Below are positions 23,728-60,653 of a DNA stretch of 64,000 nt, piece after piece (positions within the stretch are counted from its first letter, which is position 1; each line of letters begins with the position of its first letter). The stretch is from contig CAYTFU010000002.1 of NCBI GenBank assembly GCA_964437185.1, positions 41,296 through 105,295 on the forward strand, read 5' to 3'. This DNA comes from an uncultured Candidatus Saccharibacteria bacterium (GTDB taxonomy: Bacteria > Patescibacteriota > Minisyncoccia > Phycocordibacterales > UBA2100). Below the pieces are notes generated by a model. That model did not search any database. It was not told where the DNA came from and saw only the letters and a list, made by a program, of their open reading frames with translations. A program made the translations under genes and the position numbers.

Positions 23728-24216
23728 ATGGACCTCAATGCGTGGTCAAGCGTTCTTTCGTCGTGGCCGCACGACTGGATTCTTATCGGCGGCATCGCAA
23801 TTTTCGTCTCGCTCGACGCGATGCGCTCTGGCTCTGCCCGCGCGGCGTCGATCGCGCTAGCCTTGCCTGCAACTCTTTTTGCCTTCAACGCAATTCCTCA
23901 GGCTTATTTTTTGGGGCCATTGCTCGCTGAATACACCGCACCAATTGTCCACATTGTTTTATTTGTCGTGTTCTTCGCACTCATTTTTTTCACTACATAT
24001 CGTACCGTCTTTGGCGCATCGGATGGGGGGCGGGTCTTACAATCGCTCCTCATCGGCCTCGCGGCCACGGCCGCTATTGTGCTCGTATGGATTCAGGTGC
24101 CAGCTCTTGAATACGCATGGCATTTTGGCGACCAAGTGCAGGCCGTCTTCGCCCCTGCGCTTAGGCTGTGGTGGTATGTCGCAATTTTCACTTCGCTTGC
24201 GTTTGCGCGGAGTTAA
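23728..24216 (+). CDS. hypothetical polytopic membrane protein
   Basis: 4-5 predicted TM helices; C-terminal 19 codons duplicated at 25779..25834. Confidence 0.6.
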   Translation: MDLNAWSSVLSSWPHDWILIGGIAIFVSLDAMRSGSARAASIALALPATLFAFNAIPQAYFLGPLLAEYTAPIVHIVLFVVFFALIFFTTYRTVFGASDGGRVLQSLLIGLAATAAIVLVWIQVPALEYAWHFGDQVQAVFAPALRLWWYVAIFTSLAFARS

Positions 24217-24259: not shown

Positions 24260-24667
24260 ATGGTAGCCAATTTTACACTCACAGAAACTCAACGATCGGC
24301 TATTGAAAAGCTTGGCGTTGTCCTTTTGTATCTACATGGCTCGGTGGCTGCTGGCACCGCGCGCGCAAACAGTGATGTAGACATTGCTGTTTTATTTGAA
24401 ACTACGCCGCGGGACTCGATTAGCGCGACGACCGCGGTCACGGAGGCTCTACGCGGATTGGTACCGCAACGTGAGATGGATATCGCCATACTCAATGAAG
24501 CAAATCCGCTGCTGAAACAAATAGTCGCCTCGACCGGCAATCTCCTGTACGCGCGTACAACTGACGACGCATTGAAATTTGAGCTGCGCGCCATGCACGA
24601 TTACGAATATTCTCGCCATGTCGTCCGTCTGGGGCAGGAACTTATTTTGCGCAACGTGAGCGTATGA
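24260..24667 (+). CDS. mntA: minimal nucleotidyltransferase antitoxin (MntA-like)
   Basis: GSVAAGTARANSDVDIAV = GSxxxGxxxxxSDxD NTase motif; 4-nt overlap with hepT. Confidence 0.8.
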   Translation: MVANFTLTETQRSAIEKLGVVLLYLHGSVAAGTARANSDVDIAVLFETTPRDSISATTAVTEALRGLVPQREMDIAILNEANPLLKQIVASTGNLLYARTTDDALKFELRAMHDYEYSRHVVRLGQELILRNVSV

Positions 24668-25095
24668 CCGAATTTTCTCGAGAATTACTCATGGGCAAAT
24701 TGGTGCAGTGCAGCGAGGCACTCACCGATCTGCAGCGATACCGCGAGGTCGGAACTTTGGATTACCTGCGCGACCACCAGGACATATATTACGCTGTATG
24801 TTATCGGTTTATCGGTGGCATCGAAGCCTTATTTGATGCTGGCCAAATAATTCTGGCGAGCCACGGACAGCATGCAGCCGGTGACGGCGACATACCCGTA
24901 CTTCTTGGGCGAAGGAAAATTATATCTGACGAGCTGGCTAGTGCATTCACCAATATGTACGGTTTTCGCAATCGGCTGGTGCACGCCTACGGCACGCTCG
25001 ATGATTCCAAGGTGGCCGAGTACCTTCAGAGGCATCTTGTAGATATCGAGGAGCTTATCAGTGTATTTCGAGACACGGTGACAAGCTCGGAGTGA
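24664..25095 (+). CDS. hepT: HEPN/DUF86 toxin (HepT-like RNase)
   Basis: RNRLVHAY (Rx4-6H HEPN motif) near C-terminus; classic MNT-HEPN pair. Confidence 0.8.
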   Translation: MTEFSRELLMGKLVQCSEALTDLQRYREVGTLDYLRDHQDIYYAVCYRFIGGIEALFDAGQIILASHGQHAAGDGDIPVLLGRRKIISDELASAFTNMYGFRNRLVHAYGTLDDSKVAEYLQRHLVDIEELISVFRDTVTSSE

Positions 25096-25128: not shown

Positions 25129-25608
25129 ATGGGGGAGATCGAGATACAGTCCTTGGTGGCTGAGGTCGATCGGGAGGCGGTAGAGTTTTGCCGCGAGATT
25201 TATTCTGAAATGGGATGGCCTGAACATGCCCTAGGTTCAAGCGTCGCGGCACTATTCAGTGAACCTGGTGATGCTTTTGTGACCATCAAGCAGGCCGGAA
25301 AAATTATCGGTACCGGTGGTTTTCTACGACTCTCAAAAGAAGAAGCGGTATTAAAAAGGTTTTACCTCGCAAAACATGTACGCGGTAGTGATCTCGCGCC
25401 GCGATTATTTGCCGATCTCGTAGATAGGGCGCGAGTCATTGGGTACTCCGTGCTCCTTGTGGATGTTTCTTCAACCAACGTACGTGCGATACGATTCTAT
25501 GAGAAGGAGGGTATGAAGGAGTTTTTTGGTGTCTCACCCCACCCGCGCTGGGAAGGATCCTCACCCGAAAGGCAGAAAACTGACCGATATTTTCGCTTAA
25601 AACTCTAA
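25129..25608 (+). CDS. GNAT family N-acetyltransferase
   Basis: acetyl-CoA binding-like region RLFADLVDRARVIGYSVLLVDV...RFYEKEG. Confidence 0.7.
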   Translation: MGEIEIQSLVAEVDREAVEFCREIYSEMGWPEHALGSSVAALFSEPGDAFVTIKQAGKIIGTGGFLRLSKEEAVLKRFYLAKHVRGSDLAPRLFADLVDRARVIGYSVLLVDVSSTNVRAIRFYEKEGMKEFFGVSPHPRWEGSSPERQKTDRYFRLKL

Positions 25609-25856
25609 TTCAACCTGAGGTGATCCATGCTTCATTTTCACATTGTCGCCCGCAAGAGAGCGGAGTAGTTCCGTCAGAGAAACAGAGAATTTACCACAGC
25701 CCTCTCTTGCCTTATCGACAGCAAGGTTTAGAGTACACCCTATGGGTGCGTTTTCATGGAGACTTCTCGAGGACGCACTAAGACGGTGGTGGTATGTCGC
25801 AATCTTCACTTCGCTTGCGTTTGCAAGAAGCTGAGAAAATCAGCGCCTCCATACCT

Positions 25857-28247: not shown

Positions 28248-28274
28248 CCTTACGTTTTGTTGTATAATGATTGC

Positions 28275-29792
28275 ATGAGGAAATTCAAAACGGTCTTCGA
28301 GCAGTTGCCCACGCCCGTTAGCATCGCCGTTTTGCTCGTCATAATTGTGATTGTTATTACCACCTCGTGGACGCTATACAATCACACGGTCGACATTCTC
28401 ACGCAGAATTTAAGAGACCGTTTGCAGACTATCTCTGTTACCCAAGCGGCCAATGTCGATGCCTCGGATATTGAGGCACTTCAGGTAGAGGAGGATTGGA
28501 AAAAACCAGAGTGGGAACATCTGGTAAGTAAATTGCACAAAGCAAAGTACAGTAATGGTCAAATTGTTTTTATATACATTTTCCGAAAAACCAAGGATGA
28601 CCCGACCAAAATGGAATTCGTTGCAGACGCTGATTCAATTGACCCATATGCAAACATTAACAATAATCCAACCGGAGAAATAGTTTCCGCATCAACATGC
28701 CCTTTGTGCGTTGACTCCAACAGAGATGGAAAAATCGACAGAGAACATGCTGATAGGCTGCAGTGGCCCGGCATGCTGTTCCCCGAAATAGAAGGTGTGC
28801 CGGAAGCTTTTGCGGCATATAACGGCCCGATTACTGTGCCGGATATTTACACGGACGAATACGGCTCAGTTCTTACGGGCTTTGCTCCCATCACAAACGC
28901 AAGCGGGACTGTCGTAGCGATTCTGGGAACCGACATAAAAGCCGACGACTTTCTCACAATCACAAGGCAGACGCTGTATCCGTTTCTTGCGTTTATCGCC
29001 GCGCTGACGCTGATTATCGCCGTTTTGGCGGCATCGCTCATTTATATTTGGTCTCGACGTGCAAACATGTTAGCAAGACTTTCGCGTAGCCTAGAAATAG
29101 CTAATGCCCAGCAGGAAGGCCTTTTGCACTTTATTAGTCATGAGATCAAGGGCTACCTTACCAACAGCGAAGCAGGGTTTGCTTCCATCGCGGAGGGGGA
29201 TTACGGAGAGGTTACCCCTCAATTGAAAACCATGGCCACAAGCGCCCTCGCGAATGTCCGCAGGGGAGTGAGCACGGTGGTCGACATACTTCGTGCGGCG
29301 GATATGAAGCGAGGCACGGTCTCGTACAGAAAAGACCCTGTCGACGTGCGAGCGGTCGTCGAGAATGTTATCAACACACTTCGACCAAACGTCACAGAAA
29401 AAGGCCTAACTCTCGAGACCAACATCGCAGATGGGTCGTACACCACCTCGGGCGATGAGGAGAAACTTCGCAACAACGTCCTCCGCAACCTCATCGACAA
29501 CGCCATCCGATACACGCCGACCGGAACGATTACCATCAGCCTTTCCAACGCTGGCGGTACAATACGTTTTTCGGTAAAGGACAGCGGTGTCGGAATTACT
29601 GAGGAGGATAAGAAGCGATTATTTACTGAGGGTGGGCACGGCAAAGAATCCATAAAAACCAACGTCCATTCCACCGGCTACGGCCTCTTTATCGCAAAGC
29701 AAGTAGTAGACGCCCACGGCGGCAAAATCTGGGCCGAATCGGAAGGGGAGGGCAAAGGCTCCACGTTTGTTGTAGAGCTCCCCACTGCATAG
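28275..29792 (+). CDS. sensor histidine kinase with extracytoplasmic Cache-like domain (no adjacent response regulator)
   Basis: TM-periplasmic domain-TM, H-box HEIKGYLT, N/G boxes DNAIRYTP, DSGVGI, GYGLFIAKQVV. Confidence 0.85.
   Translation: MRKFKTVFEQLPTPVSIAVLLVIIVIVITTSWTLYNHTVDILTQNLRDRLQTISVTQAANVDASDIEALQVEEDWKKPEWEHLVSKLHKAKYSNGQIVFIYIFRKTKDDPTKMEFVADADSIDPYANINNNPTGEIVSASTCPLCVDSNRDGKIDREHADRLQWPGMLFPEIEGVPEAFAAYNGPITVPDIYTDEYGSVLTGFAPITNASGTVVAILGTDIKADDFLTITRQTLYPFLAFIAALTLIIAVLAASLIYIWSRRANMLARLSRSLEIANAQQEGLLHFISHEIKGYLTNSEAGFASIAEGDYGEVTPQLKTMATSALANVRRGVSTVVDILRAADMKRGTVSYRKDPVDVRAVVENVINTLRPNVTEKGLTLETNIADGSYTTSGDEEKLRNNVLRNLIDNAIRYTPTGTITISLSNAGGTIRFSVKDSGVGITEEDKKRLFTEGGHGKESIKTNVHSTGYGLFIAKQVVDAHGGKIWAESEGEGKGSTFVVELPTA
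29722..29792 (+). repeat. HK 3'-end copy 1 (direct repeat with 30095..30165)
   Basis: first 44 nt identical to copy 2, remainder differs mostly at codon third positions. Confidence 0.7.
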
Positions 29793-29806
29793 TAGAATGC
29801 GTTGGT

Positions 29807-30055
29807 ATGTTGACGAACAAAGATATAGACAAGATGATAAAGGTTTTCGCTACTAAGGAAGACATCCGGAGCGTCACCGATAGACTCGACAGGCTGGAAT
29901 CCTTGGTTCGCGGTCTTCTAACTGGGGTGGACAAACTCGCGACGAGTGTCGACAAATTGCTTTTGGAGTATGCGGCAGTCAGCGAACAACTTACGCGCCA
30001 CGAGAGGTGGATCAAACAAATCGCAAAAAAGTCTGGCGTGATGCTCGCGGACTAG
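29807..30055 (+). CDS. small coiled-coil protein, family copy P1 (82 aa)
   Basis: paralogous to 60378..60653 (shared EYAAV..QL.RHE.WIK.IAKKSGV) and weakly to 53139..53399. Confidence 0.7.
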   Translation: MLTNKDIDKMIKVFATKEDIRSVTDRLDRLESLVRGLLTGVDKLATSVDKLLLEYAAVSEQLTRHERWIKQIAKKSGVMLAD

Positions 30056-30094
30056 CAGTGCATTAGACTTGATTCTTTTCTATAAAAAGTAGAC

Positions 30095-30165
30095 ACTCGC
30101 AAGTGCAAAATCTGGGCCGAATCGGAAGGGGAGGGCAAAGGCTCCACCTTCATTGTCGAACTTCC
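30095..30165 (+). repeat. HK 3'-end copy 2 (encodes KIWAESEGEGKGSTFIVELPAA*)
   Basis: in-frame pseudo-C-terminus of histidine kinase with conservative changes V>I, T>A and TAG>TAA. Confidence 0.7.
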
Positions 30166-30207
30166 CGCAGCTTAAAATATCGACGATTTTCTGCTATCAT
30201 AGGTCGC

Positions 30208-31143
30208 ATGACACGCCTTTTTACTGGCCTCCAGCCATCTGGATCGCTTCATATTGGCAACTATTTTGGCGCACTGAAGCAGACCGTCGAGCTTCTTCGA
30301 GACGCGGACGGATTGGTGATGATTGCGGATTACCATGCCCTCACGAGCCTCAAAGATGTACCCGCGCTTCGAAAAAATATTGGAGATGTGGTGCGCGATT
30401 ACGTGGCGGTGGGAGTTGATCCAAAGAAGGCGGTGATCTTTCAGCAGTCCTCCGTTTCGGCGCACACTGAGCTCGCATGGATTTTTGATTGCCTCGTCAC
30501 AGTTCCATTTCTCATGCAGGCCCACGCATACAAAGATAAAGTAGCAAAAGGATTGGAGGCCAACGCCGGCCTCTTCACATATCCCATGCTCATGGCTGCG
30601 GATATATTGCTCTACGACACCGACGTCGTACCCGTGGGCGCCGACCAGAGGCAGCACGTCGAGTACGCGCGCGAGGCCGCGACAAAGTTTAACAACGCAT
30701 TTGGCGAGACGTTTAGAATTCCGCAAGAAAAGATTCTTGACTCAGTCGCAATTGTGCCTGGTACCGATGGCAAAAAAATGAGCAAGAGCTATGGCAACAC
30801 TATCCCGCTGTTCGGTACTAAGGACGAAATCCAAAAAGCGGTGATGAGCATCGTTACCGACTCAAATGCAGAGAGCCCTGAAAACGTATACAACATTCAC
30901 CGACTTTTTAGGAGGAGGGAGGAGCTTTCCGTACTTTACACAGAGAACAAAGGGAAATATAAGGCTCTAAAAGACGCGCTCGTCGAGGATATTGAAGGCA
31001 TGATCGCCCCGATGCGCGCGCGACGCGAGAGTCTTACCGATGAGGATGTGCGGGCGATTCTTAAGGATGGGGGCGATAGGGCGCGTGAGCAAGCCGACAA
31101 AAAAATGTCTATTATTCGCCAAGCGGTCGGCGTGGCAATATAA
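30208..31143 (+). CDS. trpS: tryptophanyl-tRNA synthetase
   Basis: start ATG 30208 (MTRLFTGLQPSGSLHIGNYFG), KMSKS present. Confidence 0.9.
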   Translation: MTRLFTGLQPSGSLHIGNYFGALKQTVELLRDADGLVMIADYHALTSLKDVPALRKNIGDVVRDYVAVGVDPKKAVIFQQSSVSAHTELAWIFDCLVTVPFLMQAHAYKDKVAKGLEANAGLFTYPMLMAADILLYDTDVVPVGADQRQHVEYAREAATKFNNAFGETFRIPQEKILDSVAIVPGTDGKKMSKSYGNTIPLFGTKDEIQKAVMSIVTDSNAESPENVYNIHRLFRRREELSVLYTENKGKYKALKDALVEDIEGMIAPMRARRESLTDEDVRAILKDGGDRAREQADKKMSIIRQAVGVAI

Positions 31144-40272: not shown

Positions 40273-41564
40273 ATAGAGGACTCGCCGTTATCTCGGTACT
40301 CTGCGTACTGCTGTGCTTACCGTCCAATTCCTTCGCCCAAAATGCGCCTGCCTCAGAGGAGCGCATCAACTCCTTACAATCGCAGATTGACACCCACAAA
40401 TCTGAGATCGAAAAAATTGACCGGGAAATTGCGCAATATCAACAGCAGCTTGACGCTGTCGGGACCAAAAAGAAAACACTTCAAAACACACTTTCGCAGC
40501 TGGATCTTCAGATAAAAAAAGCGACTGCGTCGATAAACGTCACAAAAAATAAAATTAGTGCAACGCAGCTCGAAATTCTCCAGCTTGAGAAGGGAATTGC
40601 AGGCAAAGAAGTTTCTATCGAAACGGGGAACCAGGGCCTGCGAGAGTCCCTGCGTCGACTCAATGAGATTGGAACCAATCCTCTTGCAGTGCAAGTGCTT
40701 TCCTCAATCGACATCTCCGAAGCGTGGGAAGACGCGGACGCTATTCAAGAACTCCAAGTGGCAGTGCGCGATCAAATCGCACGACTCGCTTCGGAGAAAC
40801 AATCACTCACGGAGACAAAAAACCAGACCGAGGCGAAGCGCGCGCAATTGGTGAAGCAAAAGGATACTCTGCTTGCGCAGCAAGGCTCGCTCACGGCTCA
40901 AAAAAAGGCGCAGAACGAGCTTCTCGTTCAGACCAAATCACAGGAATCCACCTACCAATCAATTTTGAAACAAAAACAGGCGGCAAAAGCCACGTTTGAA
41001 GCAGCGCTTGGTGATCTTAAAATCCAGTTCCAGAGAGCTATTAGGCCCTCGGAAATTTTGGCCGCCGGAAAGGGGATATTGCGCTGGCCGCTCGACAACG
41101 TGCGCATCACACAGCAATTTGGAAACACCGCCTTCGCGGCTTCTGGTGCATATAATGGCAAGGGACACAACGGCATCGACCTCGCCGCTCCCGTCGGCAC
41201 ACCGCTGAGAGCGGCTCTTAATGGCGTAGTTTTGGGGACGGGCAACACGGATAGCATAAAGGGCTGCTACTCATTTGGACGGTGGGTGATGATTAAGCAC
41301 CCCAATGGGATCAACACCATGTACTCGCACCTCTCCCAAATCAACGTTGCAGAGGGCCAAAACGTCGATACAGGGCACATAATCGGCTACAGCGGGGAAA
41401 CGGGCTATGCCACAGGCCCACACCTTCACTTCGGCGTGTACGTCAGCTCGGCAACGGCAATCATTCGCCTCGGCGCCGCGAGCAATTCGACCACCCCGTG
41501 CTCAAACGCCGTCATGCCCGTCGCACCCCTATCGGGATACTTAAATCCGATGAATTATCTCTAG
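40269..41564 (+). CDS. M23 family metallopeptidase with N-terminal coiled coil (EnvC-like)
   Basis: signal peptide, long coiled coil, C-terminal LytM domain GHNGIDLAAP...PHLHFGVY. Confidence 0.8.
   Translation: MNRGLAVISVLCVLLCLPSNSFAQNAPASEERINSLQSQIDTHKSEIEKIDREIAQYQQQLDAVGTKKKTLQNTLSQLDLQIKKATASINVTKNKISATQLEILQLEKGIAGKEVSIETGNQGLRESLRRLNEIGTNPLAVQVLSSIDISEAWEDADAIQELQVAVRDQIARLASEKQSLTETKNQTEAKRAQLVKQKDTLLAQQGSLTAQKKAQNELLVQTKSQESTYQSILKQKQAAKATFEAALGDLKIQFQRAIRPSEILAAGKGILRWPLDNVRITQQFGNTAFAASGAYNGKGHNGIDLAAPVGTPLRAALNGVVLGTGNTDSIKGCYSFGRWVMIKHPNGINTMYSHLSQINVAEGQNVDTGHIIGYSGETGYATGPHLHFGVYVSSATAIIRLGAASNSTTPCSNAVMPVAPLSGYLNPMNYL
41520..41564 (+). repeat. M23 gene 3'-end copy 1
   Basis: 45 nt; direct repeat with 41620..41664. 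Confidence 0.75.
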
Positions 41565-41597
41565 TACCGAGATACTCCTAACCTGAAATGAGTCTAG

Positions 41598-41620
41598 CCC
41601 CGTGGTGAAAACGCACGGGG
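41598..41620 (+). repeat. hairpin CCCCGTG-GTGAAAACG-CACGGGG inside 55-nt insert
   Basis: 7-bp perfect stem. Confidence 0.6.
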
Positions 41621-41664
41621 TCGCACCCCTATCGGGATATCTAAATCCGATGAACTATCTCTAG
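41620..41664 (+). repeat. M23 gene 3'-end copy 2 (encodes identical VAPLSGYLNPMNYL*)
   Basis: 3 differences from copy 1, all synonymous third-position changes. Confidence 0.75.
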
Positions 41665-41765
41665 TGGGGCGGAGCCTGCTTGTAATACAGTTCGCCTGAC
41701 ACTAACTCTAGCCGATGGCGTGAAGTTAGTGTCAGTGTGCACCAAGTATAAGATGTGAAATAGAT

Positions 41766-59001: not shown

Positions 59002-60653
<1,652 letters not shown>

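Follow-up and report, generated by a model that had tools for sequence, protein, structure and literature searches.

Insertion of a small helical-protein gene behind a Kaiserbacteria histidine kinase gene, most likely by recombination anchored in the conserved kinase 3' end

How can a small gene come to stand behind a conserved gene with the 3' end of that gene on both of its sides? The question is raised by a locus in the window, the whole 64-kb stretch of DNA that we analyzed. On the forward strand, an intact open reading frame for a sensor histidine kinase of 511 aa (28257..29792; HATPase_c, E=6e-26; orthologues at 68–69% identity) is followed by a small gene, P1 (29807..30055, forward strand), and then by a conserved right-hand neighbor, the tryptophanyl-tRNA synthetase gene trpS (30208..31143, forward strand; tRNA-synt_1b, E=3e-56). 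An earlier note on this DNA had read P1 as an insert bracketed by duplicated kinase ends.

A repeat search recovered one direct-repeat family at this place: 29705–29791 recurs at 30088–30174, 87 nt with 82% identity, 383 nt from start to start. The kinase 3' end is indeed duplicated around P1. Base-by-base comparison gave a longest exact stretch of 43 nt (29722–29764 = 30105–30147), so the exact run described earlier is present but is 43 rather than 44 nt long; likewise, the second copy exists, but the span of 30095–30165 assigned to it ends ~10 nt short on the 3' side. Chance cannot account for a 43-nt exact repeat within 64 kb. The kinase stop (29792) is separated from the second copy, which starts at 30088, by 295 nt; P1, a single ORF, is all that they hold, in agreement with the cargo described earlier.

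The two copies differ in an orderly way. The left copy (29705..29791, forward strand) is the working kinase 3' end and comprises the identical run and a diverged tail (29765–29792). From the T codon at 29763 to the stop there are 9 nucleotide changes: 7 are synonymous, with TAG->TAA included, and 2 replace residues conservatively (V->I and T->A). The second copy translates as (VDTRKC)KIWAESEGEGKGSTFIVELPAA, with its TAA stop at 30173–30175. The four codons 5' of the run all differ non-synonymously, AHGG versus TRKC, and coding-type similarity therefore begins at the 43-nt run. The second copy falls into two parts. The relic (30105..30175, forward strand), which ends in KIWAESEGEGKGSTFIVELPAA and the stop, is detached from any kinase gene and is collinear with the kinase ends of relatives that lack P1. 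The right junction (30088..30106, forward strand) is a 19-nt piece that resembles, in patches and at 13/19 positions, the part of the kinase 5' of the identical run; it codes VDTRKC where the kinase has VDAHGG and holds no functional kinase coding sequence. These 19 nt match neither functional kinase sequence nor a recognizable trpS start, and we regard them as a candidate illegitimate or closure junction.

Assemblies of two other samples (L001 and L002) independently yielded the same kinase–P1–relic structure, with 2 SNPs in the left copy of the L001 version. Given these independent assemblies and a repeat shorter than the assembler k-mer (k141 contigs), the structure is not an assembly artefact. 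The identical core is by itself no proof of a crossover, because the block is conserved at 24–41/44 nt between species and the 43-nt identity is only moderately above this. Comparison of both kinase tails with orthologues gave 15–19/27 nt identity for each, with no discriminating signal, and a segment-wise search for a donor found no clearly donor-like stretch of the kinase.

What does the site look like without P1? Full-length orthologues of the window kinase (P0196–P0199; 68–69% identity over 97–99% of the length, same sensor domain) occur in L187, L189, L190, and L192, and in all four the order is decarboxylase – kinase – trpS, without P1. L187 shares the gene order of the window (DnaJ – membrane protein – EamA – decarboxylase – kinase – trpS – aspS – scpA – scpB – PBP) and lacks both P1 and the MNT/HepT/GNAT cassette described below. 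In nine more species representatives, a kinase with a homologous catalytic domain lies 31–50 nt upstream of trpS, and its tail, the spacer, and a TGnTATnAT motif are collinear with the second copy and spacer of the window. The empty site that the earlier note had proposed to look for, a kinase directly before trpS, is thus present at four full-length orthologue loci and in nine further representatives. Because the downstream copy, the 32-nt spacer, and the trpS promoter-like site align to empty sites, we identify the downstream copy as the displaced end of the resident kinase. The earlier note had also named an outcome that would speak against an insertion, a second full kinase gene decaying at the site; among ~85 relatives examined, tandem kinases at the kinase/trpS site were not found, and the insertion reading survives. 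An empty site in the same species was not found, the nearest orthologous kinases being 68–69% identical, and an exact search of JGI metagenome contigs for the relic tail returned nothing; we therefore infer the direction of the event rather than observe it.

The short sequences around P1 also sort by origin. The kinase stop is followed at once by a TAGAAT hexamer (29793..29798, forward strand), which leaves 8 nt to the P1 ATG. When six P1-bearing lineages are aligned, every one of them has TAGAAT or TACAAT here. The hexamer was not flagged in a promoter scan; from its position and conservation, it is a putative −10 element, and the upstream portion of such a P1 promoter would lie inside the imported kinase tail. 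P1-bearing lineages all have TAG and TA(G/C)AAT after the kinase; empty sites mostly have TAA, then the trpS promoter motif. Behind P1, a spacer (30056..30087, forward strand) resembles, by nucleotide alignment with L012, L017, and L048, the P1–trpS spacer of P1-bearing genomes (TTAGAc ... TTTTCT ... TATAaa), and it now lies apart from trpS. A trpS promoter-like site (30172..30200, forward strand) has a −35 TTAAAA over the relic stop codon, a 17-nt spacer, and a TG-extended −10 TATCAT located 7 nt before the trpS ATG; the motif TTTTCTG(G/C)TAT also precedes trpS in relatives. An Rfam search gave only a sub-threshold chance match, and the search for intrinsic terminators was negative.

P1 is an intact 82-codon gene for a protein predicted to form one long alpha-helix (AF2 model, pLDDT 90, helix 17–76), and the protein is presumably a coiled-coil oligomer. 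Searches of Pfam, PHROG, PADLOC, and NCBIfam gave no credible family and weak sub-threshold matches only; among the candidates, DUF2730 (E=0.0012) was weak, below cut-off, and disregarded. P1 has 23 close homologues and belongs to a family of at least 1155 cluster representatives at E<=1e-3. Compared with the P1 of L012, pN is 0.11 and pS is 0.83. P1 is a dispensable accessory protein. The earlier assignment to a multi-copy small-protein family holds, with two members in the window: the paralogue P1b (46% identity; 60378..60653, reverse strand) lies between atpG and atpD without a flanking duplication, and in other Kaiserbacteria members of its subfamily occupy a syntenic position immediately before atpD. 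The insert has no terminal inverted repeats, the only inverted pair being a chance-level 11-nt match between the P1 interior and the junction and not at the ends, and it shows no similarity to phage.

All close P1 homologues (57–83%) occupy the interval between a kinase and trpS, immediately behind the kinase; they come from at least 7 lineages and show no scars. Therefore, P1 moves between homologous sites and is no free-roaming insert. The kinases of P1-bearing lineages (520–548 aa) differ in length and sensor domain, so homology to the resident kinase is confined to the 3' half. In a TrpS tree, P1-bearing genomes are scattered among empty-site genomes. Window and L012 are 83% identical in P1, 71% in TrpS, and 33% in AspS, an outlying P1/TrpS mismatch among 28 pairs; L003, the P1-bearing genome closest by TrpS (89%), has a P1 that is only 72% identical. 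That P1 is closest to a genome with a TrpS of only 71% indicates its horizontal import. The claim of a P1 insertion after the kinase is thus supported, with its direction inferred and with P1 homologues keeping to kinase/trpS sites.

We consider it likely that donor DNA recombined into the resident kinase 3' end, so that a piece of ~380 nt with P1 and a new kinase tail was gained and the resident tail was left as a relic. The most likely route is recombination that took its anchor in the conserved 3' end of the kinase, with an insert that carries no mobility gene. The distal tails differ as between species and almost only synonymously; therefore, one copy was imported with the cargo and not copied from the target, and the kinase C-terminal tail after 29764 is the copy that arrived with the insert. 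Because the kinase end is duplicated and the 19-nt junction is non-coding, the right join must have been non-homologous. In the ancestor, trpS would have come immediately behind the kinase, and the promoter of trpS would have overlapped the kinase stop codon. Incoming DNA from another Kaiserbacteria lineage, in which P1 would lie directly behind a kinase whose homology to the resident kinase is limited to the catalytic C-terminal domain, would have entered the resident kinase 3' end. The left join would have used homology in the highly conserved block encoding KIWAESEGEGKGS, where 43 nt are now identical in both copies. At the right join, which would be no ordinary homologous exchange, the end of the incoming spacer would have met the resident kinase ~70–87 nt before its stop, either in a microhomology junction of a linear fragment, of the HFIR type described below, or at the point where a small circle, integrated by a single crossover, had closed. 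The kinase would now terminate in the imported tail, which probably also holds the P1 promoter, P1 would be a self-contained expression unit behind it, and the resident tail would persist as a non-coding relic that still provides the trpS promoter. Both neighboring genes stay functional, so the insertion is tolerated. The direction of transfer, recombination as the agent, both promoters, and entry by natural transformation are what we infer from these comparisons. Saccharibacteria, another CPR lineage, are naturally competent (PMC10633639, PMC10187176), and competence of Kaiserbacteria is assumed here by analogy with other CPR lineages.

The polarity could be the reverse, with P1 resident and the kinase 3' end, spacer, and trpS of a P1-less relative imported by way of a homology anchor in trpS and an illegitimate join in the P1–trpS spacer; the relic would then be foreign. 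Such a mirror-image event is mechanistically no more complex than the import of P1, the junction sequence fits either direction, and L003 (TrpS 89%) shows that P1 is present in this clade. Still, we hold it to be unlikely: none of the four full-length orthologues of the window kinase has P1 behind it, the window P1 is nearest to that of a distant genome (83%, TrpS 71%) and only 72% identical to that of L003, and the relic at the toxin–antitoxin (TA) locus described below has a resident-type tail. A foreign relic would further need 43 nt identical to the resident kinase, in a block that between species matches at 24–41/44. As for a local tandem duplication, of the ~383-nt unit or of the whole kinase gene with subsequent decay, it would leave direct repeats 383 nt apart, as seen, and is nonetheless very improbable. 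There is a single P1 only, none of the ~85 relatives examined has tandem kinases, and the relic is followed by the empty-site spacer and not by P1. The 7 synonymous and 2 conservative tail differences moreover show that both copies evolved as working kinase ends. We give just as little credence to an ancestral kinase–P1–trpS order with many independent losses of P1 and a relic that is noise or a chimera of two strains in assembly. P1 occupies the kinase/trpS site in at least 7 lineages and losses are easy, but loss cannot make a second kinase end downstream of P1, and three independent assemblies, one of them with SNPs, show the structure, whose repeat is shorter than the assembly k-mer.

Integrase-type islands and CIMEs at gene 3' ends restore their target with element-borne sequence and leave the displaced fragment on the far side. 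The locus shares with them the restored intact gene, the displaced 3' fragment, and the possibility of tandem arrays. The repeats might accordingly be attL and attR of an integrase-less, CIME-like islet served by a recombinase elsewhere in the genome or on a helper element: the sequence of intact gene, cargo, and displaced 3' fragment is that of islands at the 3' ends of tRNA and protein genes, and an xth array in L114 resembles tandem island accretion. Yet no recombinase occurs in any insert, nor adjoining the third duplication of the window (at an M23 peptidase gene). At least 7 different and unrelated genes are targeted, with repeat lengths of 22–126 nt, and comparison by eye of the three repeats of the window and of the recA, xth, and permease repeats gave no evident shared core. 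Site-specific integration is thus improbable too, a shade more so than reverse polarity. The same argument separates insertion with long target duplication from site-specific events (PMC2853133).

The kinase locus is one of three gene-end duplications in the 64-kb window. The 3' end of a gene for a 162-aa membrane protein occurs at 24157–24216 and 25775–25834 (forward strand; 50 nt at 90% identity, 24157–24206 / 25775–25824), with ARS and the stop encoded by gcgcggagttaa in one copy and by gcaagaagctga in the other. Between the copies lie MNT (24260–24667), HepT (24664–25095), and GNAT (25129–25608), all on the forward strand; L187 has the empty site. The relic tail here, GCAAGAAGCTGA, matches the L187 tail, GTAAGAAGCTGA, at 11/12 positions, and the working-copy tail has no such match. 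The earlier comparison with this TA cassette is borne out, since a duplicated gene 3' end brackets the MNT–HepT–GNAT insert. The third instance is an M23 peptidase 3' end (41520–41565 / 41620–41665, forward strand), 93% identical over 46 nt, with 54 nt between the copies and 3/3 differences synonymous.

Relatives carry further scars. In L027, L058, and L069, the same kinase end was scarred independently and the cargo is different, and a 28-nt kinase-like fragment 2.6 kb downstream of P1 in L003/L109 may be another scar, too short for certainty. By genome, the kinase/trpS interval contains nothing, P1, a 102-aa coiled-coil ORF, a PemK-like gene, a 3.3-kb multigene block, or asd-AK-MazEF. The 102-aa ORF (L027) was rejected as a P1-family member: its pairwise match (E=3e-4) spans 23 aa and the family profile missed it. 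Elsewhere, the duplicated 3' ends that flank P1-family genes are those of recA, xth, and permease genes, and P1-family genes often lie 4–7 nt before the right-hand copy; in the L114 array, three cassettes are separated by four xth 3' ends. Under a strict criterion, 4/49 P1-family loci have flanking repeats, against 2.8% of random intervals on the same contigs, and looser inspection raises the count to ~10; enrichment around P1-family genes is suggestive, not established. Duplicated targets include the kinase, membrane protein, M23 peptidase, recA, xth, FtsX-like permease, and LD-carboxypeptidase genes.

Which known process does P1 import resemble? Homology-facilitated illegitimate recombination (HFIR) in natural transformation was reportedly described by de Vries & Wackernagel in 2002 and Prudhomme et al. 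in 2002, from experiments in Acinetobacter and Streptococcus in which recipient DNA was usually lost. It shares with our locus the one-sided homologous anchor, the microhomology join, and the gain of foreign DNA without an element-encoded enzyme; here, unlike there, the illegitimate join would lie inside the recipient copy of the anchor gene, so that the gene end occurs twice. HFIR is mentioned in PMC6382021. The known class that the P1 insertion matches is insertion with long target duplication (Nobusato et al. 2000; Furuta, Abe & Kobayashi 2010). It has been seen mostly in competent species, by an unknown mechanism; its cargo is restriction-modification genes and some of its repeats overlap the 3' end of the upstream gene (PMC2853133). 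The likeness is a unit free of mobility genes (<20 kb there; 295 nt with one ORF here) between direct repeats >30 bp of variable length and sequence (here 87 nt, 82%), and an empty site that aligns with both repeats, found here in other species where the original definition uses the same species. The differences are that the repeats of that class are near-identical to the target, whereas the last 27 nt here differ at 9 positions, and that the host is a CPR bacterium whose cargo at this locus encodes an 82-aa helical protein; at other loci in these genomes, the cargo comprises TA modules and other genes. The minimal mobile elements of Neisseria (Saunders & Snyder 2002) are incorporated solely by homologous recombination in both flanks (PMC3898611). 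They likewise occupy a site between two conserved genes with varied cassettes or none and no mobility genes, and their transfer is presumed to proceed through transformation and recombination in the flanks. They are scar-free, unlike the duplicated flank here; the scar-free P1 loci of L012, L017, L034, and L048 fit that picture. A DNA transposon or MITE differs in that there are no terminal inverted repeats here and the duplication measures 68–87 nt, versus <10 bp.

Only tentatively, and with more doubt than confidence, would we extend the proposed origin of the P1 insertion to a general, enzyme-free traffic of cassettes in Kaiserbacteria and related Paceibacteria (CPR). Small units would move together with a replacement gene 3' end and leave scars. 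Their cargo (P1-family helical proteins, TA modules, single enzymes) would lie directly behind conserved genes, and the replacement 3' end would also carry the cargo promoter while the resident end is pushed downstream. Repeated events would produce arrays, as at xth in L114, recombination between flanking copies could free circles that re-integrate by homology, and P1-family genes may be favored as passengers or even promote their own transfer.

The genomes of CPR bacteria are tiny and contain few recognizable mobile elements, and gene gain in these bacteria is poorly documented. The kinase locus is a gene gain with a readable scar, for which the untouched site and the donor-type arrangement both survive in relatives, and it points to a large, unannotated family of small helical proteins as recurrent cargo. 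At each instance (kinase, recA, xth, transporter genes), the paired gene-end copies differ mainly at synonymous sites. The class of insertions with long target duplication would thereby reach beyond restriction-modification genes and beyond cultivated competent bacteria. Taken together, the similar scars at other genes suggest that these bacteria gain genes without a transposase, and the synonymous-difference signature can be searched systematically to map recombination-driven gene flow in uncultivated lineages.

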